Positions 13,419 through 53,265 of a DNA stretch of 64,000 nt are shown in pieces (position 1 is the first letter of the stretch; each line of letters begins with the position of its first letter). The notes beneath the pieces were generated by a model, which was not told the origin of the DNA, searched no databases, and worked only from the letters and a program-made list of their open reading frames with translations. The position numbers and the translations under genes are program-made. This DNA comes from Tubulanus polymorphus (taxonomy: Eukaryota; Animalia; Nemertea), in NCBI RefSeq assembly GCF_964204645.1, contig NC_134032.1, positions 3,434,175 through 3,498,174 on the forward strand. Direction: 5' to 3'.

Positions 13419-13612
13419 AGTAATAGGGTAATAGTTGTTTCATACCAAAGGTCGAGAGGTCGAGAAATTTTCCAAATGTTAAAATAACAATAATTTCTAC
13501 TTGAATTAGTCGCGCACACTCCTAATTCAAGTAGAAATTATTGTTATTTTAACATTTGGAAAATTTATCAACCTCTCAACCTTTGATATGAAACAACTAT
13601 TACCCTATTACT
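13419..13612. repeat. Terminal palindromic hairpin of element A (194 bp)
   Basis: AGTAATAGGGTAATAG...arm...loop TCGCGCACACTC...arm...CTATTACCCTATTACT, few mismatches. Confidence 0.95.
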
Positions 13613-15257
13613 CTTAAAATATTCATATATATGAATAACATATAAATGAATAACTTCTAAAATCAATTTTAATAAAAAATTTGATATTAAAATGGAAGCA
13701 AATAAGTACTACTGCCCAACATGTAAGAGAAGTATAGATAAATCTCAAAAAGCAAGACACAATAAAACTAGAACACATTTAGAAAATAAATTGAAATTAG
13801 AATATAAAGATAATATATTAGAAACTAAATTAGAAGAATTAAAGAATGAAAAAGAAACATATAAATGTGATACATGTAATCAATCATTCAGTGATAAAAG
13901 ATATTATAAAGAACATTTGAAATCTCAAAGTCATATTAGAAATATGAATAATGATATTATAGGTGAAGATTATTTTGATAAGGATAATGATAAGAAACAA
14001 AGCGCAATTAAAAGAATAAAAAATAAATTAAACAATAAAAGACCATACATGGAAGATGTAAGAAATTATATTAATTCATTAGATAATAAAAAAGATATAG
14101 AAATAACCGAAGCATTCAAAAGTGATATTGGTCCAGCAGCTATTGAGTTTAAATTTCATAAAGGTAAAACAATAGAAGAAAATAAAAAAACATTTAGAAA
14201 ATATGAAAGAAATAATAAAAATAATTACAGACGTAGAATATCCTAAAATAAGTATTTCATCAAAAGTTAAATTTATAAAATCTGAAGATAAACCAATATA
14301 TAATATAAATTCTCATTCACAACATATTATTTCGAAACAACATATATATGATAAATTAAATAAATGTTATAATGAAATAAAAAGTAAAATAGAAGAGAAA
14401 TATTTTGAAGGATCAGGTTTGATATTTGATGAAATAATATTTATGACTTTACACGTCTATAACACAAAATATAATAAGGTAACTAAATCGAAACCAATTG
14501 ATGAAAATAATTTATCATATTATAAAGAACCAGATATTGAAGCATCGAGTTATATTAAACTACCATTTAAAACTAATGCTGTAATAAATGTACAAAATTT
14601 TGATGATAAATGTTTTTTATGGACAATTATAAGTTGCTTACATCCAACAGAAGATATTACTCATAGTTTTAGATTAACGCATTATAAACCATTTAAAAAT
14701 AATTATAAGATAGATAGTTATCCTGTTAAAATAAAGAATATCCCAAAAATAGAAAGAGATAATAATCTAAAATAAATGTATTTGATTTAATCAGGGAAGT
14801 GTGATGAGATGGAATACGGACGCTATTGTGCAGCTCTTGTCGAATGTGCGTTGTAATTGCCCTAAAGCCGATAACGGTTCGTCGGCGAGCGCTTTGTTAC
14901 GTAACGCGCCGATAAGCGATAACCAGCGAGATCGGGAATCTCCGTAATAATTCAGTTGTTTCCGAATATCGGTTTTTCATCCCATAATAAACTTATATAA
15001 AAATTCCTCTGTAAACTGGTTAAACTCAACACCTGATTTCCCCTCATCAATTTTAGTCAATCAACTTGTATTCACAATTGTCTTAAATTTAAGTGCCCCC
15101 TAGTTTGTCTCTTAACTGCTTCCCTTTAATCTGTTTTAGCGTGTAACTGTTTCTACGTTAATTTTCCTTTAGTTAGTATCATCTCTGATTACTTGAATTA
15201 GTCTCTTTGTCTCTGGATTGTATATATCTCTCATAATTTCTGTAGTATTCATTATTT

Positions 15258-15291
15258 CTGAAGATGACTATTAGGACATAGACGAAACGTT
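15258..15291 (+). ncRNA. Degenerate hammerhead-like motif / Penelope pLTR remnant inside the transposon
   Basis: CTGAAGA-T-GACTAT-TAGGAC-ATAGAC-GAAACGTT with one stem mismatch. Confidence 0.4.
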
Positions 15292-16002
15292 GAATGAACT
15301 ACTAACATTTTTGGACTTTTTCGTTATCATTGTGGGATTATCTCTACATCGCTTCAGACGGATATAGTGTTTTATCAATCGTGATATCGGTTCTTTCCGC
15401 TGTATTAAAATGGCAACGGTTGTCGACGAAATTATAAATGATGACGATTTTGACGATCTATTCTTTGATAGTGACGAATTGGTTCAGATCGATACGGAAA
15501 TATTACGGGAATCCTCTGGATCAGGATCAACTAATTCGGCCGATTCTAGTGAGTGTTATTCCTTTTGAATCAATGAAATATCGGAATAGTTTCCACCTAC
15601 TTGCAGGCACTTTATTCTTTCCTTTTCTTTTTCATATAGGTACTTCTCAGGCTCAGCTGACCAGAGACTGCGATCTGAACACGAGAAAACACATACAGGT
15701 ATTTTTTACATTTATTTTTATAATCAATACAATCCTTTTAGGTTATAAAATAATAAACGAATACAGAAAATAATATATAAACATAATATAAAAAATCCAG
15801 ATAAGTACATGTTAAAATAATAATCATTATTATTATTTTCGCAGGAACGCTATATATTTGGAAAAGGCTATGACTGAAGTGATTAACCATCGAGTATTTA
15901 AATTCAGTTCAAATGGAATGGCAGCAGTACATTATGGAAAATCGATCGATACAATTTTGACTACAAATACGTCGCCGTCCAGACTTGGAATTAACCAGTG
16001 GT

Positions 16003-16247
16003 TTACATGTCCATTGTTTTAATTTGATAGTCACAGGGACAGTTTTTTTTAACGTTTTTGTTCTTACGCCATTTTTGTAATTTGACACGACACATATTAC
16101 AGATATATCTCGGGTACTGTTCATTATCATCATCAAAATCAATGTTGAACAACTCCTTCACATGGCTTTTGAAATTATTTTTATCGATAGGACGACGATC
16201 CGGAGGTTTCGCATTTTTCCACACAGATCCAACACAAAGATCCATGA
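16003..16247 (-). pseudogene. Exon fragment encoding a CxxC...P-x3-CxxC zinc-binding domain (transposon N-terminal, Chapa/RAG1-N/zf-AD-like)
   Basis: After a TTTTAG acceptor, reads LCWIC(G)KNAKPP...VKELFNIDFDDDNEQYPRYICNMCRVKL with a one-base frameshift. Confidence 0.5.
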
Positions 16248-19200
16248 CTAAAAACAAGAAAAGGTTAATTAAATGAGATTGCTGATGCTATTTAGGCAAC
16301 TTGGATTATATGGGAGACAATAATTTGTAGGCCTAATGTAAGCGTTATTAAGTAACATTATTATGTAGTAAATACACATTTTAAATATCATACTTCGTGT
16401 ATATGTTTGTGTCGTAACATAGCAACATGACGTCAGAAACGAAAGCTGCGCGAGTCTGGGCCGAAATATTTGACATCTTCAAGGCCCAAATAACGCTAAA
16501 CCCGGAATCGGAACGAACTGGCAAAAACATATGTTTAACACATAAAAACAGACTTTAATCACAATATAAATACTTAATGTTCCGATACCGGGTTTCGGAG
16601 ATATAGAAGAATAAAAATACATACCTTTTTGGACAAATTTTACGAGAAATTGTTGAATTTCAACCGATTTTCTAAAGAAAAATATGTGTATACACAGCCA
16701 CTTCCACGTTGTTCAATTAACTGCAGTGCGCATGCGTTGTATCGATCGCAGAACATTTATCGGGCTAAAACTATTGCGGGTTGTTCTGCGACCGAATCAA
16801 AGTTGATGTTGACTGGCGTTCAGCTGGTAACACACACTCGATAAGCGTAGCTTACTGCTGTTGCGGTAACCTTTGATGTACGGGCTGAATTGAATAGCCT
16901 ACATCCGGCAATTAAAAGCGTCCGTATTCCATCTCATCACACTTCCCTGATTTAATCAAATTACCCAATACAAAAGGAAATAATATTAAACATTATACAT
17001 TAGAACCTTTATACCTATCAAAAGATTATGATTCAAATAATGTTATAGATATACTATATTATGAAAATCATTATATGTGGATACAACAAATCGATTTATT
17101 TTTCAAATCAGAAAATGATTTTGATAATAAAATATATCTATGTAGAAAATGTTTACATAAATTTAGAACTAAAAGTGCATTATTAAATCATAAACAACTA
17201 TGTGCTAATCATGATTATTGTAAATTAGTTTTACCAAATGAAAAAGATAAAATATTAGAATTCAAAAATATGATTACAAAAATAAAGTGCCATTTGTAAT
17301 ATATGGTGATTTTGAATCATTAAATAAAGAATTAACAGATAAAGATAGAAAAGAAATATATTATAAAAGAAAGAAATTAAATTCTAATGAAAGTGATTAT
17401 TCAGAAGAACCACCAAAAACAAATACTATTAAAAAGATTCATCAATCAGCTGCAGCTTTCGGGTTATATATTAAATCTAATTATCCAGAACAAATTAAAA
17501 GTGAATATTATAATTATAGAAATGAAAATGTTATCAATCATTTTTGTGACTTATTAATTGAATATGAAATAAAATTTAGTAAATTATTGAATACAAATAT
17601 AGAAATTATAATGACAGAAGAAGATAAAGAAGAATTTGAGTTTGCAGATAAATGTTATTATTGTAATCAAATATTCTATTCATATGATAAAAAAGTAAGA
17701 GATCATGATCATTTGAACGGAAAGTTTAGAGGTGCGGCGCATGAGAATTGTAACTTACAAGCTAAGAAAATCAATTTTGTTCCAGTAATATTTCATAATT
17801 TATCAGGATATGACGCACATTTTTTTATCAAACAGCTATGTCATAAAATAGAAGAAATCAATAATGAAATAGAAAGATTAAATTCAAATAGATTAAAAGA
17901 TGACAAAGTATCAACTTAAAAATTTAAAATGCTAGCTAAAACATCCGAGAATTATATATCTTTCCAATTTGGATGTCTAAGATTTATAGATTCATATAGA
18001 TTTTTAAATAGTTCATTAGATAATTTATCAAAATCATTAGTTGATGATGAATTACAAATATTAAAACAACACTATCCAAATAATGATGATTTCCAATTAA
18101 TGAGATATAAAGGAGCGATTCCATATTCTTTCTATAAAAATCATAATGATTTTAATATAACTGAATTATTAAAAGAACAATTCTATGATGAATTAAAAAA
18201 CGAATATGTTAAAGATGAAGTCTATAATAGAACATTGAATATTTGGAATCATTTTGGAATGAAAAATCATGGACAATTAGTAGATTTATATCTAAAATCA
18301 GATGTATTATTATTAACTGATATATTTGAAAGGTTTAGAGATGTAAACCTAAAATATTTTAATATTGATCCATGTCATTGTTATTCTAGCCCAGGATTAA
18401 CTTGGGATTGTGGTTTAAAATTTACAGATATAAAAATGGATTTGTTAACAAATATAGATCAATTATTATTATTTGAAAAATCTATAAGAGGAGGTGTTTC
18501 AGGTGTATTAGGTGATAGATATTTCAATGTAAATGATAACCCCGGATATAAGTTATTATACATAGATGCAAATAATTTGTTGGGCAATGAAAAAATAATG
18601 GTTGGGCAATGATGGAACCACAACCTTATGGAGTATTTGAATTAACTGAAGTTTTACAGAATGAAAATAATGATAAATTTGATTGGAAGAAAAGAATTCT
18701 AGATATTGCAGATGATTCAGATACTGGTTACTTTTTTGTTGTAGATTTAGAATATCCTGAACATATAAAATTCAAATCTAGAAATCTAGCATATTGTCCC
18801 GAACATAAAACTGTTAAACATGAAGAACTATCAAATTACCAGAAAGGAATTAAACCTGCTAATCATATTCATACAGAAAAGTTAATGGTAACTCAAGAAG
18901 ATAAATATAATTATGTAGTACATTATAGAATGTTAAAGTTTTATCTAAATCAAGGAATGATTCTAAAAAAAGTACATAGATATATTTCATTTAACCAATC
19001 TAAGTGGTTAGAAAAATATATAGATTTTAACACCAAACAGAGAACTAAAGCTAAAACTGATTTCGAGAAAGATTTCTTCAAACTAATGAATAATGCATTC
19101 TATGGTAAGACTTGTGAAAATATTAGAAATAGAAATGATATTGAGTTAGTCAGTAATGGTAAAAGAATTAGACATTTACAATCATATCCTAAGTTTTTAT

Positions 19201-19945
19201 GTAACAGAATATTTGATGAAAATTTAGCAGCAGTTAAAATGAAAAGAACATCAATGAAATTTAACAAACCGATTTATGTTGGAGCTTCAGTTTTAGAAAT
19301 ATCAAAATTACTAATGTATGAATTTTATTACAATGTATTACAACCACATTTTGGAGAAAAACATATAGAAATATTATATTTTGATACAGATTCTTACATA
19401 TTAAAATTAAAAACTGATAACATAACTGATGATTTAAAAACATTAAAACATCATTTTGATTTCAGTAACTATCCTAAAAATCATGAATTGTTTACCAATG
19501 ATAATAAAAAAGTTCCTGGAAAGTTTAAGGATGAATTAGGTGGTGAAGAAATGATAGAGTTCATTGGTATTAGATCTAAAATGTATAGTTATAAAACTAA
19601 AACTCATGAAGCTAAAAAGTTAAAAGGAATTAACAAAAGCGTTGTTGAAAAGAATATTCATTTTAAAGATTACATCAATTGTATATTCAATGAAGAAGTT
19701 AGAAAACATAAGATGAAATGTTTAAGATCTGAAGATCATGAAATGTTTATTGAAGAGATAGAGAAGATAAGTCTAAACCCATTTGATGATAAAAGATATA
19801 TTTTAGATGATGGAATTCATACCGTTGCTTATGGTTGCAATTTAGATGAATACTTAAAATTTAAAAGAGAAGAAACAAAAGAGAACGAGATAATGAAAAG
19901 AATTCTAACGTGTTAATCAAATTTTAATAAAAATATGTTATTAAA

Positions 19946-20315
19946 ATGGAGAGTAAACAAGCGCACAGTGAGAACAACAAATCATTTCTAGATAGAATAA
20001 AAGATACTACAAATGTAAAATCTGTAGATTATAAATTCAAAAAGTTAAGAAGAATTAACAATCCATAAGAAATATCTAATTACAAATATTGATACAGTTA
20101 CTAATAACTATGGAGATAATAACTATGGAGATAAATTAGTTATACACTTAGAATATGAAGGATTAAAAGGAAATACATATAAATTCAGAACATATTTACC
20201 GGATAGATTTCATAGATTATCAAGTGAAGATTTAGAAGAATTATGTCCTGGAGATTTCTATTTCGTATACAAAGGTAAGAATGAAAAAGGTCACCATGAA
20301 ATAGATTTCGAATGA
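19946..20315 (+). pseudogene. Small OB-fold/SSB-like protein, element A (frameshifted)
   Basis: Homologous to intact 31852-32193; contains an extra base and a short tandem duplication near 20105-20130. Confidence 0.85.
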
Positions 20316-20332
20316 GAAAATATGTAAAATAA

Positions 20333-21087
20333 ATGGTAGAATTAAAAGAATACAGAATATTTGTAGATTCTAGAAAACTTACAAATTATAAATCTCATAA
20401 TTTACTAGTACAATTAGATAGAGAATTCAAGAATTGTGTAGATTTAAAATTAGTTAATATGAGTTTATGTAATTCTTTTTATAATATATCGAATAAAACT
20501 ATTGAACATAATACTTTTTTAATTCATATTAGAAATATAAATAAATGGTTTAATCTATTTCTAAGACCAGGATTATATAATTTAGAAACATTAGCTCAAG
20601 AAATTAATCGTAGAGCACGGTTGAAAATTAGAAAAGATGATAAATTTTTAATAAGATTTATAAAAAGTGATAGCTCAAATAAAATTAATAAAAAGGTATT
20701 TGATGAAAGTCAACATGCATTTATGGTAAAAAAACCTATAGCTAAACTGTTAGGAATTGTACCAGATACTGTTACAGGAAACGTAGAAGGCATTTCAAAT
20801 ATAATGCCTTTTACACACTTATTTATTGCAATTTAATCGATCCTACAAAAACATTCGAAGCAACTAAAGATACAACATGTAATTCTAGTATATTAAATAT
20901 TTTACCGCTGAAAAATGTTAAACAATTTGGAACGCAAATAAATTATAATTTAACAGAATGTGATTTCAAACCTTGTATTCCTCAATTTAATAATTTTAAA
21001 TTAGAAATAAGAAATCATAATGGTTATTTAATTGATTTGAATAACTTTCCTGTAATTTATGAATTAGTTATAAGATGTAAAGAGTAA
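20333..21087 (+). pseudogene. Minor capsid protein (penton), element A, frameshifted
   Basis: Colinear with 32211-32966; frameshift near 20820. Confidence 0.8.
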
Positions 21088-21103
21088 TTTTTCACCTATA
21101 TAA

Positions 21104-21461
21104 ATGAATATAACTGTTGGACCGAGTATATGTTTTGGGTTTGATTTTAAACGTGAGAAAGAAATGAAATTTAACATTAATGATGTAATTACACATATTA
21201 AAAATATTGCATTTTCTAATGAAACAACATTTGAGTATGAAACAACAATAGATAAAGAAACTTTAAATGTAGAAAAGATTACTAATTTAATTAGAGAATC
21301 TTTAAGATTTTATGAATTAGATGAAGATTTTATCATCGATGATATTTAAAAAAATAATAATTGAAATATATAAAAATGAAACTAGTAATAAAATAAATGT
21401 TGAATTAATCATAAATAAGTTAACTAAATATGTTGATGATAGTAATTTTTTTGATAAATAA
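21104..21461 (+). pseudogene. Hypothetical viral protein, element A (premature stop)
   Basis: Homologue of 117-aa ORF 32983-33336. Confidence 0.8.
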
Positions 21462-21683
21462 ATGAGTGATAATAAGTGGATAATAACTGGATTATATAAT
21501 GGAGCATTACTATCAGTTGGAACTGTTGGTTATTCAATGGTATTAAAAAAAGTATTCAAAATGGGAAGTGTTAATGTTGATAGATTTGATATAAATGATA
21601 TTTTAAAATTAACGTTAGCAGTTACTTTATCTAATTTAACTATTGATTATTTGGAAAAACAGAAATATATTCCTCCTATATAA
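21462..21683 (+). CDS. 73-aa putative membrane protein, element A
   Basis: Intact, identical protein in B; two hydrophobic segments. Confidence 0.85.
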   Translation: MSDNKWIITGLYNGALLSVGTVGYSMVLKKVFKMGSVNVDRFDINDILKLTLAVTLSNLTIDYLEKQKYIPPI

Positions 21684-21707
21684 ATGCGTAATTTTTTTAT
21701 ATAATAA

Positions 21708-22130
21708 ATGGCTTCTGCAATTATAACTATTATAGGATCGGCAATTGTTAACGCTTTAGCTTTTACAGGTGGAGGATATTTATTTAAACATATTGATAAA
21801 AATAGTTCATTAGGAGAACAAAGAAGACATAACTTAGCGTTAGAGAAATACAATAAAGCTGCAGAAGAATATAGAGAAAAGAGACAAAACTATATGGATT
21901 ACATCAATAAAGAATTATATGATCAGAAGATCTCACATAGAGATTTTCAATCAGTTGATGATGCAATGAGTTTATATAACGCGGTAACCAATAAAGAAAA
22001 ATTACATCTATACAAACCTAAATTATCAGATTATTATACCCCAAGTAAAGAACAACAGAAATATGAAATAATTTGGATTTTAGGCGGAACTGTTATTGTT
22101 ATATTTGTAGCGTATAAATTTACTAATTAG
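21708..22130 (+). CDS. 140-aa putative membrane protein, element A
   Basis: Hydrophobic N-terminus and C-terminal IIWILGGTVIVIFVAY; conserved in B. Confidence 0.85.
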   Translation: MASAIITIIGSAIVNALAFTGGGYLFKHIDKNSSLGEQRRHNLALEKYNKAAEEYREKRQNYMDYINKELYDQKISHRDFQSVDDAMSLYNAVTNKEKLHLYKPKLSDYYTPSKEQQKYEIIWILGGTVIVIFVAYKFTN

Positions 22131-22149
22131 TAATTTTTTTTCTAAATAA

Positions 22150-22557
22150 ATGGAAGATAAAGTTGATAGTATTGATATTATTCCTCATGATATAAATAAA
22201 ACTAAATTAAAAACATATTTAGAAAAACAAATATTAGAATTTGAAAGTGACTTAAAGATAAAAAAGAAAAAATATTTAAAAAGTAAAATTATATATTATT
22301 TGATTATTAGTGGTTCGGTTACAATTAGTTCTGTAATAACATTTCTAGCAATATTCAGTCCATTAACACCTTTAGCTATATCAATTGGTGTGTTAGGATT
22401 AAGTTCAAGTGTTTTAACCGATATAAGTTCAAAATTAAATATAAAAAGTAATAAAGAAAAAATGAAAACTAATATAAAAGAAATTAATAAATTAAAGAAT
22501 ACACTAGATTATATAATAAGTTTAAATGGCCATATAACAGTTGAAGAACAAGATTAA
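22150..22557 (+). CDS. Two-TM coiled-coil protein, element A (9 aa shorter than B through a stop)
   Basis: Homologue of 34025-34459. Confidence 0.8.
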   Translation: MEDKVDSIDIIPHDINKTKLKTYLEKQILEFESDLKIKKKKYLKSKIIYYLIISGSVTISSVITFLAIFSPLTPLAISIGVLGLSSSVLTDISSKLNIKSNKEKMKTNIKEINKLKNTLDYIISLNGHITVEEQD

Positions 22558-22600
22558 TTATTAAAAGAATTAATAAATTATCAATTTTTTATTTATATAA

Positions 22601-23988
22601 ATGGTAGATAGTTTTCCAAAAGCTTTCCAATATAATAAATCAATTAAATATAATATTCCAGCAATAGATTTTAATAAAGATATTACATATAGAAATGAAG
22701 TTTTAGAATCATTAACTAATTTAGAAATTTATGTTACTGAAACTAATAATTTTAATGCAAAGATGGAAAATATATTTCATGTATATTTAATTAATTTAAA
22801 AAAATTGAAAGATGAAAAACAATGGTTATTAAAATCTAATATGAAGTATTGGCAGAATCAATTAAATTTTGCTGTTTATTGTTCAACAACAGGATGTGGA
22901 ATTAGTTGGAATGATCATTTGAATAATTCTAAATATAAATTAATTCAAAGTTTATTTAGATTTCATACATACTTTCAAATAAGAATAATATTAAATGAAT
23001 TAGAGTGCGCTTTACCAGGATCAAGATATTTTAAAGAATTAGATAATAATATTAATTTATCTAAGTTTTATAAAATTTGCAATGAATTTAATATAGATAT
23101 AAATAATTCTGATTTTAGAACAAAAATTGGAACAATAAGATCACTTCCTTGCCCTAAAAAGATTGCAGAATATTGTGCACTTCCCATACCATCTAATAGC
23201 TTTTATAATATCTATAATAATAAATTAGGTTATGGTAAAATAGAAACTAAGGATTTAGAAACATTAAATTTCAATAAATTGCCGAAATTTTATGATCATT
23301 TAAAACAAGAAAACAATAATGGTTGGGTTTATTTTATTTTAGAAAACAGTGAAGGTTTTATTAAATCAGGTATAGAAAGAATAAATCAATCTATTAGAAC
23401 TTATTTGATATGTATTTTAGGTGCGCAAGTTGAAAGAAGATCACCGATAATTGGAAATTTTAATACATCATTCGATACACAAAAACAATTTAAAGTTTTA
23501 TTTGAAGATTCAATTCATAATGATAAAAATAGATCGATTCCAGAAAACATTATTAGATATCAAAATTATTTAGATAAATCACATATTAGATTAAATTATT
23601 GTATAGGCCCTAATCTATTAATTATTTCTAATGATTTAGTATTGAAGATGGGAAATATAATTGGTTATAATAATCTAATTAAAACTGCAACAATAAATAA
23701 TTCATTTGGGTTAAATGATATAAATAAAAAGATTATTACTGCTCCAAAATTAATGGAAGGTGAAAAAAATAAAAAACACATTCAATCAACTGAAACTAAA
23801 ACTAAGAATATTAAATTAAATAGTGATTCTAAAATAAAAGATTAAAATACATCAGAAAATATTAAAACCGATAAAATTCAACATGATATAATTAAACTAA
23901 ATGCTGATAATAAATCCCATGAAAATACTAAATTAGCTATATCTTGTATAGGAATTGTAATCGGAGGAAAATTATATTTTAAATTTTA
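22601..23988 (+). pseudogene. Conserved viral protein with C-terminal TM anchor, element A (premature stop at 23845)
   Basis: YWQNQLNFAVYCSTTGCGISW motif; homologue of 34477-35784. Confidence 0.8.
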
Positions 23989-24005
23989 ATTTTTTTATTA
24001 TGTAA

Positions 24006-25467: not shown

Positions 25468-25488
25468 TTAATTTTTTTTGTTAAATAA

Positions 25489-26736: not shown

Positions 26737-26768
26737 AATTTTAACTTTAATAAAAAATCTTATATTAA

Positions 26769-27712: not shown

Positions 27713-27794
27713 CTTAAAATATTCATATATAAATGAATAACATTTAAATCATTGAACTTCTAAAATCAATTTTAATAAAAAATATAGTATTAAA

Positions 27795-35784: not shown

Positions 35785-35800
35785 TTTTTTTATTATGTTA

Positions 35801-37676: not shown

Positions 37677-37680
37677 AAAG

Positions 37681-38294: not shown

Positions 38295-38310
38295 ATTTTG
38301 AATTAGGATT

Positions 38311-40005: not shown

Positions 40006-40008
40006 ATT

Positions 40009-41192: not shown

Positions 41193-41861
41193 TTAACCAC
41201 TCATTAAAGACTCAACGTATTGTTCATTATTTGGATTATTATTCCATTGATCAATAAATTTCTTTGCCTTTGTTAACTGTTCTAAATATAACTGTAAATC
41301 TAGTTTATTAGATTTGATTTGATTTTCTTTCTTTTCTAAAGGTCTTAAATTTTTCCAACCCCAAATAAGTTTTTTATTGTATTCATCATTCATGTTAAAT
41401 TTAGATATTGGTAACACGTGATCAATGTGGTAATAATCCCCATAATTATCTATATTCATTTTATCATCGAATTGAAATATAATCCATGATTTGAGAAATT
41501 CATCTGAACAACCCAACAAATTAGATAGGGTTTCTGAATGCGTTTCTTTGTTGAATAATTTTGATACTTTAGATCTTAAGCATTGTTTCAATCTAAAATT
41601 AAGATCTGTTTGATATCTTTCTCTCATATATTTTGTCATATAATAATTATAATGTTCTATATTATCTTCTCGATATTGTTTAGTATATAGTTTAGTACAA
41701 GTTTTACAACAATATTGAAAACCATCTTTGCTAATCTTACGCTTACTAAATTCTGTTAAAGCTAATTTATCTAATTCACATTTAGAACACTTCTTGTAGT
41801 ATATGTTTATAACACCAGTGTTATTTGTAATATTGATAATTTGTGGTTGTTCTGGTTCCAT
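41193..41861 (-). CDS. HNH-type endonuclease with N-terminal Zn ribbon, element B
   Basis: KKCSKC...CCKTC; LLGCS; HIDHVLP...KNLRPL...EN..KSNK. Confidence 0.85.
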   Translation of the reverse strand: MEPEQPQIINITNNTGVINIYYKKCSKCELDKLALTEFSKRKISKDGFQYCCKTCTKLYTKQYREDNIEHYNYYMTKYMRERYQTDLNFRLKQCLRSKVSKLFNKETHSETLSNLLGCSDEFLKSWIIFQFDDKMNIDNYGDYYHIDHVLPISKFNMNDEYNKKLIWGWKNLRPLEKKENQIKSNKLDLQLYLEQLTKAKKFIDQWNNNPNNEQYVESLMSG

Positions 41862-43145: not shown

Positions 43146-43352
43146 TCATATCCTCACGTATTGTTCATTATTTGGATCAGTGTTCCATAATTCAATAAAT
43201 TTCTTTCCTTTTGTTAACTGTTCTGAATATAACTGTAAATATTCTAGTTTCAATTTATTCTCTAAATGTGTTATAGTTTTATTGTGTCTTGCTTTTTGGG
43301 ATTTATCTATATCGATATTACATGTTGGGCAGTAGTATTTATTTGCTTCCAT
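43146..43352 (-). CDS. Chimeric right-end ORF: PolB N-terminal Zn finger + HNH C-terminal tail, element B
   Basis: First 38 aa match PolB-B; last 30 aa match the HNH C-terminus; equivalent ORF in A. Confidence 0.55.
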   Translation of the reverse strand: MEANKYYCPTCNIDIDKSQKARHNKTITHLENKLKLEYLQLYSEQLTKGKKFIELWNTDPNNEQYVRI

Positions 43353-43440
43353 TTTAATACTATATTTTTTATTAAAATTGATTTTAGAAGTTCAATGATT
43401 TAAATGTTATTCATTTATATATGAATATTTTAAGAGTAAT
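43240..43440 (-). repeat. Right TIR of element B (hairpin absent)
   Basis: Reverse complement of ~27707-27907. Confidence 0.9.
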
Positions 43441-43807
43441 GTAATAGAAAATCCAACAGTTATAAATCCAAAATTTAATAAAATGAATATATTAGATTAA
43501 ACATTTATAGATTATTTCTCGAGTAATGATATAGTTACCATATTGAAAAAGTTAGATTAAACCAAATGTAACTTATGCAATGAACTTATTTGAACTTAAA
43601 TATGATGATTTTAGAGAATTTTTAAATAAACATCCATCTAAAAATGAAATCGAAAATTATATTCCAAAAATATTTTCAAGAGAAACATTCAATAAATATA
43701 AACTCGGGAATCGTTCAGGAATTATACCAATGAAAATGCGAAGGAATATATGGTTAGAATATGATAAGCTTAAAGAAAAATATGAAAATGAAAATGAAAA
43801 AGATTAA
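43441..43807 (+). pseudogene. Zinc-finger protein, element A, 3' part
   Basis: Homologous to 37299-37676 with small deletions. Confidence 0.85.
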
Positions 43808-43821
43808 GTTCTATTTATATA

Positions 43822-44149
43822 TTGATGGATGAGTTGGATGAGTTGGATTAGTTGGATGAGTGGAAGAGTGGAAGAGTGTAATATTATATATATTTTACTT
43901 TTTAACACATGAATTGGAAGAATAGTATGAGTATAAATATAATATTTGTATTCTTTATTAAATTTAACACAATATATATATTATTAAAATAATATTTAAA
44001 TATAGTATAAAATTGATAAAATAACTTCAAATCAAACTCTTACTGTTTTAAAAATAAAAAACATATGTAAATTATATATTATTACACTCACCCATTCATC
44101 CACTCATCCAATTCATCCAATTCATCCAATTCATCCACTCATCCATCAA
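43822..44149. repeat. Central fold-back, element A
   Basis: Same TGGATGAG(T)-repeat inverted arms, shorter spacer. Confidence 0.9.
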
Positions 44150-44186
44150 GCATATTCAAAATTCTCTAATATTTTAAATTAGGATT

Positions 44187-44797
44187 TTATTTTATAAATT
44201 TATATTCATAGGGAAATTGTAATCTCAGTAATAATTTTGAACCTTTATTATTCTTTAATTTATTCATATATTCATCATGTAACTCAGTAGGTATAATTTG
44301 ATTTTCTTCCAATGATTGTTGCATAGATTTTTATCTTTGTTATAAAATAAAACTAGAAATCTAATGTTTTCTCTAAAGTCTTTAACAATTGAATTATATT
44401 TTTGATTTAAAACCCAAGTTGTTATCCCGAAATGTCTTCCAGAGAAAGCCAAATAACATAACTCACTTTCTCTAACTTTTGAATCATGTAAATTTGCGCA
44501 ATCATCTATAATGAATAATGTATTTGATCCTTTATAAGTATCAATTGCTATTTTAATACAATTATCTAAATTTTCTTTTACTGTTTTAGGGTCTAATATA
44601 ATAAACTTTTTTATCTTAACTATATCTCTATTATATGTTTTATTCATTTCATAAGTAGGACAGAATAATATTGTATTATCAAAATGATTCTTATAAATAG
44701 TTTCTAACAAGTCTAATATGAAATGTGTTTTACCACAATTGGTTACTCCAGTTATTAACATATTATGCGGTTCAAATATAAATAAATCTTTATTCAT
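44187..44797 (-). pseudogene. Packaging ATPase, element A (frameshift near 44330)
   Basis: Walker A/B and GRH motifs; colinear with B copy. Confidence 0.9.
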
Positions 44798-45878
44798 TTA
44801 TTCTTTTAATTTTACTAGATAAAATCCATTCATTAAATTTATCATCGTATCCTTTATATTTCACTAGAGAATATTTCTTACCGCGTAATGTTTTTGTTTT
44901 CAATACCTTTTCTATCTTGTATTCTATTTCATCTGGATTTGGTACTAATGATAATTCTTGTTCATAAAAATAAACTAATATTTCTTCATCTTTTAAGTCA
45001 AATAATTTATAAACAAAAGGTTTAGTTAATATTATCTTTTTAATTTGAAATATTTCTTCAGTAAAATTAGTGGTATAACCTTTATAAAATGTTTTTCTAT
45101 ATTTCGATATTCTAATATGTTGTCCAATTTTAAATTTGGGTTCTCCAAAATCATGTGTAACTAATGCTCCATATAAATTATTCCAAACTATTTCTGAATT
45201 ATCTTCTTTTCTAGCTTGTATAGGTTTCATATTTATAGAACTATGTTTAGAATTATTATAACCTTTCACTAAATCATCTAACACATTGATATATTTATAT
45301 GTTTCATTAGCAGTAAAATATTTCCACATTCTAGTTTTCAATGTTTTATTAAATCTTTCTATAATAGATGCTTTTTTATCTGAATGTGTTGAAAAATATT
45401 CTACATCGTTATCAGATAATAGTTTTTTGAAATGTTTGTTATAAAATTCCTTACCTTCATCAAATTGTATCTTATCTGGAATAGCTTCTTTAAATATAGA
45501 TTTAAAAGCATTTGTTACTTCTATTCCAGTTTTATTTTTGATTGGAATTGACCACGCGTATCTACTGAATATATCTATAACATTTAAAATCCAAAAATAT
45601 CCTTTGTTATATTTTTCTAAGTTTTTCATATCAATTAAATCAGCTTGCCATTGTTGGTCAATATATTAAACCATTACTTTTCTTGTTAAATATTTTTTAT
45701 CCATCTTTTTATGAATTTGATATGTGGGTTGATTTTGTAACCATGATTTTAATTCACTATATTTTATTTTTTCTTTATCGGATTTAATTTTATCCCATAG
45801 TTCCGAAACACTTGAATATGAAACTTCACTTTCTGGGTTATAATATAAATCTCTTAAATATTGTTCTTTTTTCATCAT
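44790..45878 (-). pseudogene. rve integrase with chromodomain, element A (single TCA>TAA nonsense at ~45666)
   Basis: WQADLID, IDIFSRYAW, IQFDEGKEF, IIERFNKTLK; chromodomain YKIEKVL...LVKYKGYDDKFNEWI. Confidence 0.92.
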
Positions 45879-45881
45879 ATT

Positions 45882-46271
45882 TTAATCCATTAATAATATT
45901 TTAGATTTATTTTCATTTGATTTGTTTTCTGGTGGTTTATTGTCTGGATAACGAAGTTTCCGTTCATCATTATCATTATCACTTTCATTATTATTAAATT
46001 TATATTTATATATTACACCAGAGAATATAATTACTGTGATTAATCCAATTGTAATATATAATTTATTATTACTTCCAGCATTAGAAGAATTAGATAAATT
46101 ATTATTTGAATTAATACCAGATTCATTTATATCAGTTAATTTCTTTTTCTTAGCTTTTTTTAATTCTGCAGATCTTTTACCTAATTCCCTTGCCCATTTA
46201 ATTTGTTTCTCAGATCTAAGCTTTTTCTTAATATCACCGTGTGGGTGTTTAACGGTACCATCTTCACTCAT
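45882..46271 (-). CDS. Basic single-TM protein (129 aa), element A
   Basis: Homologue of 40009-40368. Confidence 0.8.
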   Translation of the reverse strand: MSEDGTVKHPHGDIKKKLRSEKQIKWARELGKRSAELKKAKKKKLTDINESGINSNNNLSNSSNAGSNNKLYITIGLITVIIFSGVIYKYKFNNNESDNDNDERKLRYPDNKPPENKSNENKSKILLMD

Positions 46272-46881
46272 TTATTTTACTTAACTTTTGTTCTGATTCA
46301 TCTTCTGTTTCGCCGTGTGGATGTTGTGCGGCACCATCTGTTTCGATCTTACCTGATTTATTATCTTTACATACTATAGGTTTAATGTTAGAAAATGTTA
46401 TAACTCCAGTCGAAATCAATGTCATAACCGATCCTAATTGGAATGAAGCGTATCCAACCCATTTTTGTAATTCAGTCATAACTAAGAAGTCATTTTTTAA
46501 ATCACTATATAATTTATTTTCATCATTAATTGGCATTAGCCGGTTACATAATTTTGAATAACATTTGATAAAACCATTAGAAATAGAATCATTTATTCTA
46601 GCTAATCTTGACTCTTCATAAATCTTAAAATATTTGATTACTTTTTCTTTGTTCATATTATCTAATTCTTGAAAAGTTATTGTTTTACCAATAAACTCTT
46701 TAGATTTTCCACCGGCAATCAATAGTTCTAGATGATGCTTACAATATAAGTAGTATTCATAATCTATATTGTTATTAACTTGAATAGAATTAGAAACAAC
46801 TGTATCTTTATTATCACTTATACCCAAATCATCTAATGTCTTTTCAATATCAATATTATTCTTATTAGATTTCTTTGACAT
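46264..46881 (-). CDS. Hypothetical protein (205 aa), element A
   Basis: Homologue of 40361-40966. Confidence 0.8.
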   Translation of the reverse strand: MSKKSNKNNIDIEKTLDDLGISDNKDTVVSNSIQVNNNIDYEYYLYCKHHLELLIAGGKSKEFIGKTITFQELDNMNKEKVIKYFKIYEESRLARINDSISNGFIKCYSKLCNRLMPINDENKLYSDLKNDFLVMTELQKWVGYASFQLGSVMTLISTGVITFSNIKPIVCKDNKSGKIETDGAAQHPHGETEDESEQKLSKINE

Positions 46882-47159
46882 TTATATTAGAGAAATTTAA
46901 TAAGAAAAATATTATAAGTATTATAAAATGATACTAGCTAGTTAAAGCTAAAGAATTCTAGTATTAGTTATTGTTTTTTTAGAATTTTTTATTTGTGATA
47001 TAAAGTATTCTTTTTTGAAAAGAAAATATTAAAAATTAAAATAGAAATTATAGATAGTTGAAGTTATTGTCTTTTTAATATATTTTATTTGAATTCTATT
47101 TGATATCTCACTACTTTTGTTTATCTATTAGGAGCAGTAGTTATAAATGTGCAGATAAG

Positions 47160-47834
47160 TCATTTCGGATCCTTGATATCAAATTCCTCAACATATTGTT
47201 CGTTATTTGGATCATTGTTCCATAATTCAACAAATGTCTTTGCTTTATCCAGTTGATCTAAATATAATTTCATATCTAGTTTATTAGATTTAATTATGTT
47301 TTCCTTCTTTTCTAAAGGTCTTAAATTCTTCCAATTCCAAATAAGTTTTTTATTGTATTCATCATTCATGTTAAATTTAGATATTGGTAACACGTGATCA
47401 ATATGAAAGTATTCACCATAATTATCTATATTCATTTTATCATCGAATTGAAATATAATCCATGATTTGAGAAATTCATCTGAACAACCCAATAGATTAG
47501 ATAGTGTTTCTGAATGTGTTTCTTTGTTGAATAATTGTGTTAATCTAGATCTTAAGCATTGTTTCAACCTAAAATTAAGATCTGTTTGATATCTTCCTCT
47601 AATATATTCTGTCATATAATCATTGTAAGCTTCTCTATTATCTTCTCGATATTGTTTGGTATATAGTTTAGTACAAGTTTTACAACAATATTGAAAACCA
47701 TCTTTGCTAATCTTACGCTTACTAAATTCTGTTAATGATTTATCTAATTGACATTTAGAACACTTCTTGTAATATATATTTATAACACCAGTGTTATTTG
47801 TAATATTGATAATTTGTGGTTGTTCTGATTCCAT
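47160..47834 (-). CDS. HNH-type endonuclease, element A
   Basis: Same motifs as 41193-41861. Confidence 0.85.
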   Translation of the reverse strand: MESEQPQIINITNNTGVINIYYKKCSKCQLDKSLTEFSKRKISKDGFQYCCKTCTKLYTKQYREDNREAYNDYMTEYIRGRYQTDLNFRLKQCLRSRLTQLFNKETHSETLSNLLGCSDEFLKSWIIFQFDDKMNIDNYGEYFHIDHVLPISKFNMNDEYNKKLIWNWKNLRPLEKKENIIKSNKLDMKLYLDQLDKAKTFVELWNNDPNNEQYVEEFDIKDPK

Positions 47835-49176
47835 TTATTATACACATTTTTTTACTAAATTGGTTAATATTTTAGAATCCTCTTCCATTTCTTCGACCAA
47901 CGTCATCCTTTTTCATTCCTCGTTGCTTTTGATAAATTGTTTCGATTCCTTGATATCTAAATCATACCAGTTACAATACCCGCGTCACATGCGGCCATTT
48001 ATGGCCGGTTTTGCTTAATGCACATGTGTTAATCATAATTATAAATTCATTCTATAAATTCTGTAAAATAGAAACAACTGAACATAGAAAATTCGAACGC
48101 ATTCATGTTCTCGTCACATGCGTTACATGTGTCACATGCGGCCATTTATGGCCGGTTTTGCTTAATGCGAATGCGTTAATCATAATAGAAACGACTGAAC
48201 ATAAAAATTCACAAATCAGATTTACACAATACATTATACAAGTTGTTCAGTCATTTCTTCCAATACATCATTTGATTTCTATAAATACAATTTATAATTA
48301 CAAACATTTTTCAATTGCCGGTAAATATTTAACTACATCAACAAATGTTAAACTTAATCATTGGAGTCTTAATGTTTGTGAAATTCTTATATTTCTTCTT
48401 CGATCTTTTGGCGATTCTATTGGTTTGATATCCACCGGTTTGTGCGTGTTTAATTTGACACCAGTTCCACAGTTGTATATAGGTTTATTTGACTCTGGGC
48501 CTAGTTCCACAGTTATCTAAAAGATATACCAAAATATAAATTGCTACACATAAATATATTTAAAGGTTTCATATTTAGCGGCCCTAATAAACAAAAACTG
48601 TACTTACATTTAACTCTCGAACTGTAAACTGTATATGATGCGGCGTTTATGAGACTGTTATGATACAGCGTTTATGAGAATATCCTGGTTATGGACGCAA
48701 CGTTTATGATACTATATCCTGGTTATGACACAATGTTTATGAGACTATATCCGTTGAAAAGCGATCGATATATGCTGGTATTTCGTTCTGTGTGTGTATA
48801 CGCAACTAATTGCTTTTCACCCGTCGACTGTCAAGCGTCTGATGTGCGCGCCTATTTATACTATTCTATGTCCAGAAACATCTAGAACAAGCGTGTTGAG
48901 ACTTGCAAATTATGACACTTTTGATTGGTTAGAGCTTAGTTGTCCAGAAACATCTAGAAAGCGCGTCGTGACTTGTAAATTATGAGATTTGTGATTCGGT
49001 AACGTCCGCTGTATACACAACACGTTGAGACTTGTAAATATAGTTGAAAAAAAATCAATAATAAAGGCATTTAGATCAATGAAATTAATTAACTCTTTAC
49101 AATTGAAATATAAGCTGGTAACATATGTTTACTAGAGCTAATACAACCAACTATATAGCTGAGTATTATCAGGCGT

Positions 49177-49350
49177 TTATAACGATTCAACGTATTTTTC
49201 ACTATGTGTTGAGTTCCATAATTCAATAAATGTTATTGCTTTAACCAACTGGACTAAAAACAAATGTGTTCTAGTTTTATTGTGTCTTGCTTTTTGAGAT
49301 TTATCTATACTTCTCTTACATGTTGGGCAGTAGTACTTATTTGCTTCCAT
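49177..49350 (-). CDS. Chimeric right-end ORF (57 aa), element A
   Basis: MEANKYYCPTCKRSIDKSQKARHNKTRTHL + FLVQLVKAITFIELWNSTHSEKYVESL; read manually, below the ORF track cutoff. Confidence 0.5.
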   Translation of the reverse strand: MEANKYYCPTCKRSIDKSQKARHNKTRTHLFLVQLVKAITFIELWNSTHSEKYVESL

Positions 49351-49353
49351 TTT

Positions 49354-52300
49354 CATACATTAGTAATTTTGATAATTCTAAAACTGAAGCGCCAACATAG
49401 ATTGGTTTATTAAATTTCATTGATGTTCTTCTCATCTTAACTGCAGCTAAATTTTTATCAAATATTCTGTTACCAATGAACTTAGGATATGATTGTAAAT
49501 GTCTAATTCTTTTACCATTACTAACTAACTCAATATCATTTCTATTTCTAATATTTTCACAAGTCTTACCATAGAATGCATTATTCATTAACTTGAAGAA
49601 ATCTTTCTCAAAATCAGTTTTAGCTTTAGTTCTCTGTTTGGTGTTAAAATCTATATATTTTTCTAACCACTTAGATTGACTAAATGAAATATATCTATGT
49701 ACTTTTTTTAGAACCATTCCTTGTTTTAGATAAAACTTTAACATTCTATAATGTACTACATATTTATATTTATCTTCTTGAGTTACCATTAACTTTTCTG
49801 TATGAATATGATTTTCGGGTTTAATTCGTTTTTTGGTAATTTGATAATTCTTCATAAGTTACAGTTTTATGTTCGGGACAGTAAGCTAGATTTCTAGATT
49901 TAAATTTTTTATCTTCAGGATATTCTAAATCTACAACAAATAAGTAACCAGTATCTGAATCATCTGCAATATCTAGAATTCTTTTCTTCCAATCAAATTT
50001 ATCATTATTTTCATTCTGTAAAACTTCACTTATTTCAAATACTCCATAAGGTTGTGGTTCCATCATTGCCCAACTATACAAATTATTTGCATCTATATAT
50101 AATAACTTATATCCAGGGTTATCATTTACATTGAAATATCTATCCCCTAATACACCTGAAACTCCTCCTCTTATAGATTTTTCAAATAATAGTAATTGAT
50201 CTATATTTGTTAACAAATCCATTTTTATATCTGTAAATTTTAATCCACAATCCCATGTTAATCCTGGTGATGAATAACAATGCCATGGATCAATATTAAA
50301 ATATTTTAGGTTAACATCTCTAAACCTTTCGAATATATCGGTTAATAATAATACATCTGATTTTAAGTATATATCTACTAATTGCCCATGATTTTCTATT
50401 TTGAAATGATTCCAAATATTCAATGTTCTATTATATACTTCATCTTTATCATATTCATTTTTTAATTCATCATAAAATTGTTCTTTTAATAATTCAGTTA
50501 TGTTAAAATGATTATGTGATTTATAAAATGAATATGGAATTGCTCCTTTATATCTCATTAATTGAAAATCATCATTATTTGGATAGTGTTGTTTTAATAT
50601 TTTTAATTCATCATCAACTAATGATTTTGATAAGTTATCTAATGAACTATTTAAAGATCTATATGAATCTATAAATCTTAAACACCCAAATTGGAATGAT
50701 ATAAAATTCTCAGATGTTTTAGCTAACATTCTAAATTTATAAGTTGGTATTTTATCTTTTGATCTATTTGAATTTAATCTTTCTATTTCATTATTAATTT
50801 CTTCTATTTTATGGCATAACTGTTTGATAAATAAATGTGCATCATATCCTGTTAAATTATGAAATATAACTGGTACAAAGTTTATTTTCTTAGCTTGTAA
50901 GTTACAATTCTCATGTGCAGCGCCTCTAAACTTTCCGCTCAAATGATCATGGTCTCTTACTTTTTTATCTTTATAATTAAATATCTTTTCACAATAATAA
51001 CATTTACCTGAAAACACAAATTCTTCTTTATCTTCTTCTGTCATTATAATGTCTATATTTGTATTCAATAATTTACTAAATCTTATTTCATATTCAATTA
51101 ATAAGTCACAAAAATGATTGATAACATTTTCATTTCTATAATCATAATATTCACTTTCAATTAGTTCTGGATAATCAGATTTAATATATAACCCGAAAGC
51201 AGCAGCTGATTGATGAATCTTTTTAATAGTGTTTGTTTTTGGTGGTTCATCTGAAAAATCATTTTCATTCGAATTTAATTTCTTTCTTTTATAATATATT
51301 TCTTTTCTATCTTGATCAGTTAATTCTTTATTTAATGATTCAAAATCTCCATATATTACAAATGGTACTTTATTTTTGTAATCATATTTTTTGAATTATA
51401 ATATTTTATCCTTTTCATTTGGTAAAACTAATTTACAATAATCATGATTTTCACATAATTGTTTATGATTTAATAATGCACTTTCATTACTGAATCTATG
51501 TAAACATTTTCTACAAAGATATATTTTACGAGTGTGATCATTTTCTGATTTAAAAAATAAATCGATTTGTTTAATCCACATATAATGATTCTCATAATAT
51601 AGTATATCTATAACATCGTTTGAATCATAATCTTTTGATAGGTATAAAGGTTCTAATGTATTGTGTTTTATATTATTACCTTTTGTTTTTGGTAATTTGA
51701 TTAAATCGAATACATTTATCTTTATATTATTATCTCTTTCTATTTTTGGGACGTTTTTAATTATAACAGGATACTTATCTATCTTATAATTATTTTCAAA
51801 TGGTTTATAATGAGTTAATCTACAAATATTATAAGTTGCAGGATGTAAGCAACTAATTATTGACCATAGAAAACATTTATCATCAGAATTTTGTACATTT
51901 ATAACAGCATTAGTTTTAAATGGTAATTTGATATAACTTGATCCGTTAATATTATCATCTTTATAATATGATACATTATTTTCATCAATTGGTTTTGATT
52001 TAGTTAACTTATTATATTTTGTGTTATAAACATGTAAAGTCATAAATATTATCTCATCAAATATTAAACCTGATCCTTCAAAATATTTCTCTTCTATTTT
52101 AGTTTTTACTTCATTATAACATTTATCTAATTTATCATCTATATGTTGTTTATATATAATATGTTGTGAATGAGAATTTATATTATGTATTGGTTTATCT
52201 TCAGATTTTATAAACTTTACTTTCACTGATATACTAATTTTAGGATATTCAACATCAGTTATTATTTTTATTATTTCTTTCATATTTTCTAAATGTTTTT

Positions 52301-52792
52301 TATTTTCTTCTAATGTTTTACCTTTATGAAATTTAAACTCAATAGCTGCTGGACCAATATCACTTTTAAATGCTTCGGTTATCTCTATATCTTTTTTATT
52401 ATCTAATGAATTAATATAATTTCTTACATCTTCCATGTATGGTCTTTTATTGTTTAATTTATTTTTTATGTTTTTAATTGTCTTCTGTTTCTTATAATTA
52501 TCTTTATCAAAATAATCTTCACCTAAAATATCATTATTCTTATTTCTAATATGACTTTTAGATTTTAAATGTTCTTTTTAATATCTTTTATCACTGAATG
52601 ATTGATTACATGAATCACATTTGTATGTTTCTTTTTCATTCTTTAATCATCTAATTTAGTTTCTAATATATCATCTTTATATTCTAGTTTCAATTTATTC
52701 TCTAAATGTGTTTTAGTTTTATTGTGTCTTGCTTTTTGGGATTTATCTATATTGATTTTACATGTTGAACAGTAGTACTTATTTGCTTCCAT
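49354..52792 (-). pseudogene. PolB, element D (stops, frameshifts, 3'-truncated)
   Basis: ORF pieces 51396-52436, 49821-51068, 49337-49855 colinear with PolB-B. Confidence 0.93.
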
Positions 52793-52871
52793 TTTAATAC
52801 TAAAATTTTTATTAAAATTGATTTTAGAAGTTATTCATTTATATTTTATTCATGTATATGAATATTTTAAG

Positions 52872-53265
52872 AGTAATAGGGAATATGTTGTTTCAGGTTA
52901 AAGGTTGAATGGTCGAGTTCATTAATAACAAATATTAAAAGTAATTTAAAACTATAATATATTTTCATAACCGTGTGCATTTCAGTTGAATATTATTATT
53001 ATTTGAATATATTTGATTATATGAATGTGTGTATTGTAAATAAATCAATTGGTCGCGGAGCGGAGCGGTAGCGAAGTGGAGCGACCAATTGATTTAATAC
53101 AATATGCTTTTAAAATTATTGATATCTTAGAATAAATATTTAGTTTTAATATAAAATGTACACGGTTATGAAAATATATTATAGTTTTAAATTACTTTTA
53201 ATGTTTTGTTTTTAATGAACTCGACCGTTCGACCTTTGATCTGAAACAACATATTCCCTATTACT
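52872..53265. repeat. Terminal palindromic hairpin of element D (394 bp)
   Basis: AGTAATAGGGAATATGTTG...CAACATATTCCCTATTACT; ~110-bp outer stem, large internal loop, inner stem TAAATCAATTGGTCGC/GCGACCAATTGATTTA. Confidence 0.95.

Follow-up and report, generated by a model that had tools for sequence, protein, structure and literature searches.

A Polinton family with terminal palindromes

The analysed stretch, hereafter called the window, comprises 64,000 nucleotides of the genome of the nemertean Tubulanus polymorphus (assembly GCF_964204645.1, contig NC_134032.1, positions 3,434,175 to 3,498,174 of the forward strand). It contains an element family which, as judged from its gene content, is a Polinton provirus of the Beta-adintovirus type, and which carries long self-complementary palindromes at its ends. 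By self-comparison, the family is ordered as palindrome, PolB, accessory open reading frames (ORFs), capsid gene, ORF Y and a central inverted repeat; past this repeat, ATPase, integrase, two small ORFs, an ORF of the endonuclease VII family and subterminal repeats lie on the opposite strand. An earlier note, made from the sequence alone, had described three elements which each start with a palindrome. The three palindromes stand (Table 1), but not the three whole elements: element B (27447-43440, approximately 16 kb) is inserted within ORF Y of element A, which itself consists of 13419-27446 and 43441-49358 (approximately 17.8 kb by coordinate arithmetic, excluding B and a transposon of 2.2 kb), and the right end of A is joined to C, a PolB fragment. 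Each copy has at least one broken core gene.

The coordinates, lengths and motifs given earlier for the three fold-back palindromes could be confirmed. Their DNA folding energies are -82.8 (A), -93.8 (B) and -112.1 kcal/mol (C) with DNA parameters, with z values of -23.1, -23.6 and -27.4, respectively, against 60 dinucleotide shuffles per palindrome. In palindrome C, firm pairing is limited to the outer approximately 108 bp and the apex, and the middle is loose. The outer end of the palindrome is in all three copies, to the base, the end of the element and abuts host or target DNA, and the three copies have no outer flank sequence in common. The inner flank is constant, with CTTAAAATATTCAT directly following the palindrome in A, B and C. 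The ATG of PolB starts 79 (A), 82 (B) and 79 (C) bases inward of the palindrome, in agreement with the spacing of about 80 bp noted before. On the strand whose 3′ end forms the terminus, the terminal 23-26 bases are perfectly paired. All six matches of AGTAATAGGG in the window at no more than one mismatch are ends of these palindromes, although hits to a 10-mer by itself are close to chance expectation (mean 2.96). A motif is present in a left form, AAAGGTCGA, and a right form, TCAACCTTT, in all three palindromes.

The palindrome is the outer part of a longer terminal inverted repeat (TIR), which measures 362 bp in A and 462 bp in B, because remnants at the right ends match the left ends of A and B. 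At these right ends, the PolB promoter and the first PolB codons are present in two copies of inverted orientation. The remnant at 43239-43440 is closest to the left end of B (219/226 bases, vs 92% for A and C), where it pairs with 27707-27908 over 202 nt at 99%. The remnant at 49262-49358 is closest to the left end of A (95/96 bases between 13685-13780 and 49262-49357, vs 91-92% for the others). Polinton TIRs start with AG or AGT. The contrast drawn earlier between Polintons with such TIRs and viruses with hairpin ends does not hold here, as the hairpin lies within an ordinary TIR starting with AGT. The deletion that removed the right palindrome of B also took some bases of the target and occurred at a microhomology of 4 bases. 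With regard to a target-site duplication, the flanks of A and C do not match, and the right ends of A and B are both deleted.

Two other arrangements were rejected. A single element of 40 kb with hairpins A and C as its ends does not agree with flanks that lack a common duplication and with TIR remnants that pair A with 49262-49358 and B with 43239-43440. An origin of the palindrome from a circle or a head-to-tail TIR junction does not agree with the DNA outside of it, which is host or target DNA and not a viral right end.

Table 1. Features of the Polinton copies (positions within the window)
Feature	Position	Strand	Description
Terminal palindrome of element A	13419..13612	+	194 bp; 91-bp arms, 12-nt loop
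Terminal palindrome of element B	27447..27712	+	266 bp; A-like stem, loop holds a further stem
Terminal palindrome of fragment C	52872..53265	-	394 bp
Left TIR of A	13419..13780	+	362 bp; palindrome, PolB promoter, first ~30 PolB codons
Left TIR of B	27447..27908	+	462 bp
Right TIR remnant of A	49262..49358	-	Severed by joining to fragment C
Right TIR remnant of B	43239..43440	-	Palindrome gone except first six inner bases
PolB of A	13692..19916	+	Disrupted by frameshifts, stops and a 2.2-kb transposon
PolB of B	27795..31823	+	Open, 1342 aa; zinc fingers, TP-like domain (TP, terminal protein), OTU, exonuclease with endonuclease-VII-like insert, polymerase
PolB of fragment C	49352..52792	-	Broken, truncated
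Left-arm gene block of A	19917..27446	+	Accessory ORFs, capsid gene, ORF Y interrupted by B
Left-arm gene block of B	31852..37676	+	Capsid gene deleted near 36811
Candidate single jelly-roll penton ORF	32211-32966		Candidate by size only
Double jelly-roll capsid of A	25489..26736	+	415-aa ORF; model pLDDT 89.8; best match PBCV-1 capsid, E 2.6e-17
Central inverted repeat	37663..38312	.	115-nt arms, AT-rich spacer, between convergent gene blocks
Central inverted repeat, second copy	43826-44137		Between convergent blocks
Right part of A	43441..49358	.	ORF Y resumes after nested B
A32-type packaging ATPase of B	38311..38925	-	Pfam Pox_A32 E 1.6e-12
A32-type ATPase, copy in A	44264-44797		Frameshifted
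rve integrase with chromodomain of A	44790..45900	-	Split across frames; Pfam rve E 5.6e-8, Chromo E 2.2e-4
Integrase, copy in B	~38925-40005		Also split
Stand-alone endonuclease-VII/HNH-family ORF of B	41193..41861	-	PHROG 1035 endonuclease VII E 7.3e-15
Stand-alone endonuclease-VII-family ORF, copy in A	47160-47834		

Conservation of the fold

The arms of the palindromes covary, and the structure is kept over the sequence. When the 43 outer columns of A, B and C were compared without gaps, 24 were invariant pairs, 11 varied between the copies yet paired in all of them, one (position 35) was mismatched in A, B and C alike, and seven were mixed. Over positions 47-90, the arms of one copy are identical at 39-44 of 44 positions, whereas copies compared with each other agree at only 21-30, which bears out the earlier proposal that each arm matches its own partner. 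The adjoining PolB promoter is alike between copies at 71-73 of 78 positions.

The remaining mismatches are not evenly distributed between the strands. They were counted in stems of 90 (A), 46 (B) and 108 (C) columns, excluding the inner stem of B and the loose middle of C, and comprise three transversions and 15 transition mismatches, 14 of which are G·T on the strand with its 3′ end at the terminus. By distinct position, the polarity is 10 versus 1 (p = 0.012). The transition mismatches of the related loci L023, L010 and L102, which are described below, are likewise all (five of five) G·T on the 3′-terminal strand. In A, B and C this strand folds better than its complement, by 6-10 kcal/mol with DNA parameters and by 16-37 kcal/mol with RNA parameters. 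Three sources could each account for the bias, namely selection for pairing, C-to-T damage of this strand, or folding as RNA. In the latter case, an outward transcript from the PolB promoter region would form a long G·U stem and serve as a source of small RNAs or as a decoy similar to adenovirus VA RNA. The energies calculated with RNA parameters would fit such a function; the outer end of the palindrome coincides, however, to the base with a DNA end in each of the three copies, and no Rfam match was found in 13000-54000, so that an RNA role appears very improbable.

The left and right motif forms follow the same order in A, B, C and L023, and the single arm present in each of two further relatives, L024 and L026, agrees with it. 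Swapped forms, as expected for a flip-flop of the end, were never seen among these three window copies and three relatives. Terminal resolution of the type used by adeno-associated virus (AAV) gives two orientations. The telomeres of poxviruses are also described to occur in two orientations, flip and flop (PMC8956199). The idea that two bases inside the inner arm are a template for restoring the dinucleotide removed by the integrase is not supported, as L023 and L024 carry other bases there.

Since the stems on either side turn over but the doubled AGGTCGAG-like motif is retained along with its mismatch, the stem and the fixed mismatched motif might instead form a structure-specific binding site for packaging or integration, and not for replication. 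The mismatches in vaccinia hairpins, which according to PMC8956199 serve virion maturation and not DNA synthesis, would be a precedent. A duplex that is packaged or integrated does, however, not have a foldable single-stranded end unless it is hairpin-closed, the perfectly matched 3′-terminal stem would be left unexplained, and the binding protein is hypothetical. A binding site of this kind is thus decidedly unlikely.

Palindromes in sequencing reads and related loci

Reads of four sequencing runs were aligned to 12600-14780, with X5 (approximately 12% of the run) coming from a different study than X1-X3. In X5, the mean depth was 4.4 in the low-depth host flank, 732 in the PolB interior and 2096 in the inner TIR bin. 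This corresponds to approximately 165 copies per genome, assuming that the low-depth flank is single-copy, and the 2.9-fold higher depth of the inner TIR compared with the PolB interior is expected if both ends carry the TIR. At the border between arm and promoter (depth approximately 2096), 1153-1160 reads continue in alignment into the arm, and another 1004 have clipped ends that run into a variant arm with the right-hand form of the motif. Together, these reads account for the promoter depth, and the depth of the A-like arm is not above it. This leaves little room for A-like palindromes without promoter; divergent ones would escape, and 152 reads can be placed at two positions. In one X1 contig, 13456 and 13568 are connected by 15 letters, which represents a much shorter hairpin, and one X2 contig exits the window at 13418 and thereby marks the insertion point.

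The palindromes are not independent miniature inverted-repeat transposable elements (MITEs), because nearly every PolB promoter in the reads runs into a palindrome arm. None of the three has its own target-site duplication and none is free-standing in the window. Neither the window nor the reads thus showed the genome-wide independent MITEs that the earlier note had named as its possible refutation: own duplications are absent, the inner flank is shared and the arm depth does not exceed the promoter depth.

Scans with a PolB alignment yielded 118 related loci. In L023 (76% PolB identity), a hairpin of approximately 260 bp ends in AGTAAT/ATTACT and contains the doubled motif; a small gene and PolB come next, in this order. 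The sequence of L024 (76%) begins within the hairpin and includes the right-hand motif. Palindromes of approximately 184 bp, as possible termini, lie just upstream of PolB in L010 (32%) and L102 (36%), and an A/T-rich palindrome of 81 bp is located upstream of PolB in L001. L002 and L020 contain long inverted repeats and the nuclease insert of PolB, yet no long hairpin in the available DNA, whose ends may be incomplete. DNA pattern scans and single-protein scans of a viral contig collection gave no matches.

Some further observations were made on these loci. The small gene found after PolB in the window (31852-32193) sits between hairpin and PolB in L023 (571-936) and L024 (338-724), and in the relatives with 76% identity the nuclease ORF lies directly after PolB, i.e., the gene order is shuffled around a kept end. 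The palindrome of L010 (4657-4840) has a branched apex with two small hairpins from a direct repeat of approximately 50 bp and is located between divergent viral-like genes, not at the contig end. L051, a contig of 16.8 kb, exhibits TIRs of 108 bp (16-123 and 16672-16779) with a 14-bp stem near each tip. Relatives of these viral genes are also filed in 16 prokaryote-labelled contigs (L103-L118) and under bacterial names (P0046, P0131), which is likely due to binning contamination.

The palindromes might also be neutral relics, for example of an old fold-back inversion or a captured MITE, or an artefact of the assembly. Palindromes do arise by fold-back and are unstable, and in fact both right-hand ones of the window are lost and L026 lacks the right arm. 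Against this stand the covariation of the arms and their different lengths between copies, the hairpin of L023, which is kept in another data set and with another gene order, the variant arms in reads of a second study, and the lack of palindrome-flanking duplications and of solitary palindromes in the window. This explanation is largely refuted already and retains very little probability.

Encoded proteins

The open PolB of B has its key residues in place: Ser241 in the TP-like domain, C307 and H403 in the OTU domain, and D614, H615 and N631 in the endonuclease-VII-like insert. Across 82 aligned PolB rows, Ser241 is conserved in 81 and C307, H403, E485, H615 and N631 in all 82; D614, H615 and N631 together with the zinc ligands of the insert are kept in 79-82 rows. 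The insert itself is present in 82 of the 118 loci. In the structural model, Ser241 sits between helix 2 and the last strand of the TP-like domain, which is the loop where the linking residue is placed in PMC11161782, and the domain order equals the order TP-OTU-PolB given there. As the TP domain retains this serine, protein priming by PolB is predicted to be kept. The TP-like domain gave two matches to the LF/PAD fold (Z 8.2 and 8.1, rmsd 3.0 and 2.6, 103 and 94 aligned residues), and further matches were obtained for the OTU domain (Z 7.7), for the exonuclease of phi29 (Z 7.8) and between the insert and the Hpy99I fold (Z 6.4, rmsd 2.0, 57 aligned). A Foldseek search with the model of the PolB N-terminus yielded no match at E <= 0.001, the best rows being Y-family little-finger domains (E ~5e-3).

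The traits of Polintons and adintoviruses found here are a PolB with TP and OTU domains (by fold and residues), an rve integrase, a double jelly-roll capsid protein, an A32 ATPase and TIRs of several hundred bp. This supports the earlier description as an integrase-encoding double jelly-roll virus, which rests on the Pfam match to rve and the match of the capsid to PBCV-1 (Table 1). PolB gave no Pfam match to PF03175, and the assignment to the Beta class is made because an OTU-PolB without such a match defines this class in PMC8502044. The closest named relative of PolB is that of a Corynactis coral adintovirus (34%). A maturation protease of the Ulp1/adenain type was found neither among 20 proteins with Pfam nor among 13 with PHROGs, no structure search having been aimed at it. 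Likewise, the Pfam and PHROGs scans of the window proteins, several of which are ORFs without assignment, gave no match to an HUH Rep. The stand-alone nuclease had no meaningful sequence match in the PDB.

Proposed function of the terminal fold

The palindrome may fold back within the single strand that has the genome end at its 3′ terminus, and may act as a local duplex origin and repair template for the predicted protein-primed PolB (pPolB), a reading for which we consider the chances evenly balanced. Three findings speak most for it: intact TP residues, a fixed order of the arms and a fold that is better on the 3′-terminal strand. Strand displacement primed by TP would begin at a duplex end. 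The displaced strand, or a strand looped out from the chromosome, would then snap back at its perfectly paired 3′ end, and the resulting short-range duplex would replace a panhandle of 16-18 kb between opposite TIRs. Synthesis by TP-PolB would begin across from the terminal bases and proceed through the stem, by which the order of left and right arm would stay fixed. The folded 3′ end would be trimmed and re-extended to a limited degree, which, together with template switches at the fold-back of the apex, would keep the arms matched while the stem length shifts. The open duplex ends starting with AGT would finally be the substrate of the integrase. All functional steps of this scheme are inferred from sequence and fold. 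Streptomyces telomeres are reported to combine, with unrelated proteins, priming by TP with repair of the end, both on a folded 3′ strand (PMC5449611). The earlier note had left open whether the hairpin is an origin, a self-primer or a telomere; 'origin' fits the evidence better than 'telomere', as no flip-flop was seen and the TP domain is kept.

Several points weigh against a protein-primed fold-back origin. The 11 covarying columns overcount the underlying events, as the comparison was ungapped and the left arms differ by just 1-4 bases at positions 1-24. The G·T bias depends on stem lengths chosen by us and on related copies, and two of its possible sources, damage and an RNA fold, would be unrelated to this origin. 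No right-hand palindrome is left in the window, so that two hairpins per element are inferred. Among the relatives, L026 (62%) retains the left motif without a right arm, and a palindrome of at least 180 bp was found upstream of PolB in only three (L010, L023 and L102) of the 50 loci with at least 450 bp of upstream sequence, which is no census, as many PolB genes are internal and short-read contigs break at hairpins. The fold Z scores are middling and within the range that the tool calls common. Molecule ends formed no pile-up in the 12% of the one run, nor did free viral DNA show up there. Finally, where a perfectly paired 3′-OH adjoins single-stranded template, it also constitutes a DNA primer, and self-priming may compete.

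In that case, the folded 3′ end would be the true DNA primer, PolB would extend it to a hairpin-closed duplex or a head-to-head dimer, and either the endonuclease-VII-like insert or the stand-alone ORF of that family would open the product; the same nuclease would cut cruciforms at the two palindromic ends of the provirus and excise it. The perfect pairing of the 3′-terminal bases would suit such a primer, two domains of the endonuclease VII family with kept putative catalytic and zinc residues are encoded, and the base of a cruciform would fall exactly on the border between host and virus. The intact TP residues of PolB and the lack of flip-flop argue against it. Moreover, most of the loci with the nuclease insert show no palindrome, a specific link between insert and hairpin is not supported, and such inserts in PolB are interpreted as invasions by homing endonucleases or inteins. 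The residue that we take to be the equivalent of E65 of T4 endonuclease VII is Ala634 here and variable in the alignment. Hairpin priming has been proposed for virophages as well as polinton-like viruses (PLVs) of protists, in which, however, palindromes preferentially accompany replicases other than pPolB (10.64898/2026.07.28.741278). Overall, self-priming with nuclease resolution appears unlikely.

Both ideas could be combined in an animal Polinton lineage that excises itself: the endonuclease-VII-like domain would resolve end cruciforms at the host/virus borders and release a hairpin-capped genome, which TP-primed PolB would reopen. Such a cycle is still less likely; if true, it would fill in the excision step so far missing from the Polinton cycle and form a bridge between protein-primed and hairpin-ended double jelly-roll viruses. 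In the literature, nothing was found that joins Polintons with cruciforms and excision or with endonuclease VII.

Relation to known systems

The protein-primed fold-back origin favoured here has to be seen against several known systems. Parvoviruses such as AAV carry a palindrome at their outermost end, in which a paired 3′-OH lies next to unique sequence. The Tubulanus elements share this arrangement, but differ by their own pPolB, double jelly-roll capsid and integrase, and no HUH Rep and no flip-flop were found. The closest likeness is to Polintons/Mavericks of the Beta adintovirus type as described in PMC8502044 and PMC11161782, i.e., a pPolB with TP-like and OTU domains but without a PF03175 match, rve integrase, A32 ATPase, double jelly-roll capsid, TIRs and a size of approximately 16-18 kb. 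Unlike in these, the outer 194-394 bp of the TIR are a palindrome here, and no maturation protease turned up. The words 'hairpin' and 'palindrome' are absent from the main text of PMC8502044 and of a preprint on nematode Polintons, the latter of which does describe nuclease inserts in Polinton PolB (10.1101/2023.08.22.554363).

Both Halocafeteria (protist) virophages and the PLVs of subtype 4 have been described to contain palindromes in their TIRs, the published example being 52 nt long (10.64898/2026.07.28.741278). These share with the present elements a palindrome within the TIR beside the insertion site and an rve integrase. In contrast, the palindromes here are 4-8 times longer, belong to an animal Polinton with a TP-bearing pPolB and include a fixed mismatched motif and strand-polarised G·T pairs. 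The idea of a hairpin-bearing TIR in this virus group had already been put forward in that preprint. Streptomyces telomeres (Tpg/Tap) resemble the scheme proposed here in TP priming on a folded 3′ strand and fold-back end repair, yet they differ in unrelated proteins, an internal bidirectional origin, several short palindromes and the lack of an integrase, and may serve as a working analogy only (PMC5449611). With the telomeres of poxviruses, the palindromes share AT-rich imperfect stems, kept mismatches and structure over sequence; there, the apex is the genome tip and two forms occur, whereas here the outer end of one arm is the integrated end, in one orientation (PMC8956199). An inverted repeat of a PLV has further been linked to an entomopoxvirus TIR (PMC11296320), and another report marks palindromic repeats only in a figure legend (10.64898/2026.10.13.758929).

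In the accessible text of these sources, no account of long terminal hairpins in animal pPolB Polintons was found, although older curator notes may exist. The basic idea is already in print and the function here is deduced from sequence; the present elements extend terminal palindromes from protist elements without pPolB to animal Polintons bearing it. The exit of Polintons from the chromosome, the restart of replication and the shedding of TP before integration have not yet been demonstrated, and PMC11161782 calls the removal of TP before integration unclear. As a defined, covarying and strand-polarised end adjoins an open PolB that retains its TP, OTU and nuclease residues, and as the family numbers approximately 165 copies per genome, short synthetic ends and single proteins can separate protein priming, self-priming and cruciform cutting.

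Further features of the window

The central inverted repeats, in which GGATGA-type short repeats flank an A/T-rich array, are likely a shared terminator region. Subterminal direct repeats of approximately 65 nt lie upstream of the nuclease ORF, with four copies at 41982-42407 and two at 47982-48207. Two small ORFs at the right ends, 43146-43352 (-, 68 aa) and approximately 49175-49351 (-, 57 aa), start with TIR-borne zinc-finger codons of PolB and end with a resemblance to the C-terminus of the nuclease ORF. The transposon in PolB of A (14793-16948, 2.2 kb) is a non-autonomous DNA transposon with TIRs of approximately 35 bp and a 9-bp target duplication, and its empty site was seen in contigs of two sequencing runs. 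Host repeats elsewhere in the window comprise a 256-bp inverted repeat unrelated to the virus (60825-61080) and the pairs 112-561/5813-6264, 5239-5715/61085-61561 and 6252-6797/53428-53960. A single-exon gene for a G protein-coupled receptor of the rhodopsin family, which by itself marks the host as an animal, is located at 54209-55273, approximately 0.9 kb from the end of fragment C.

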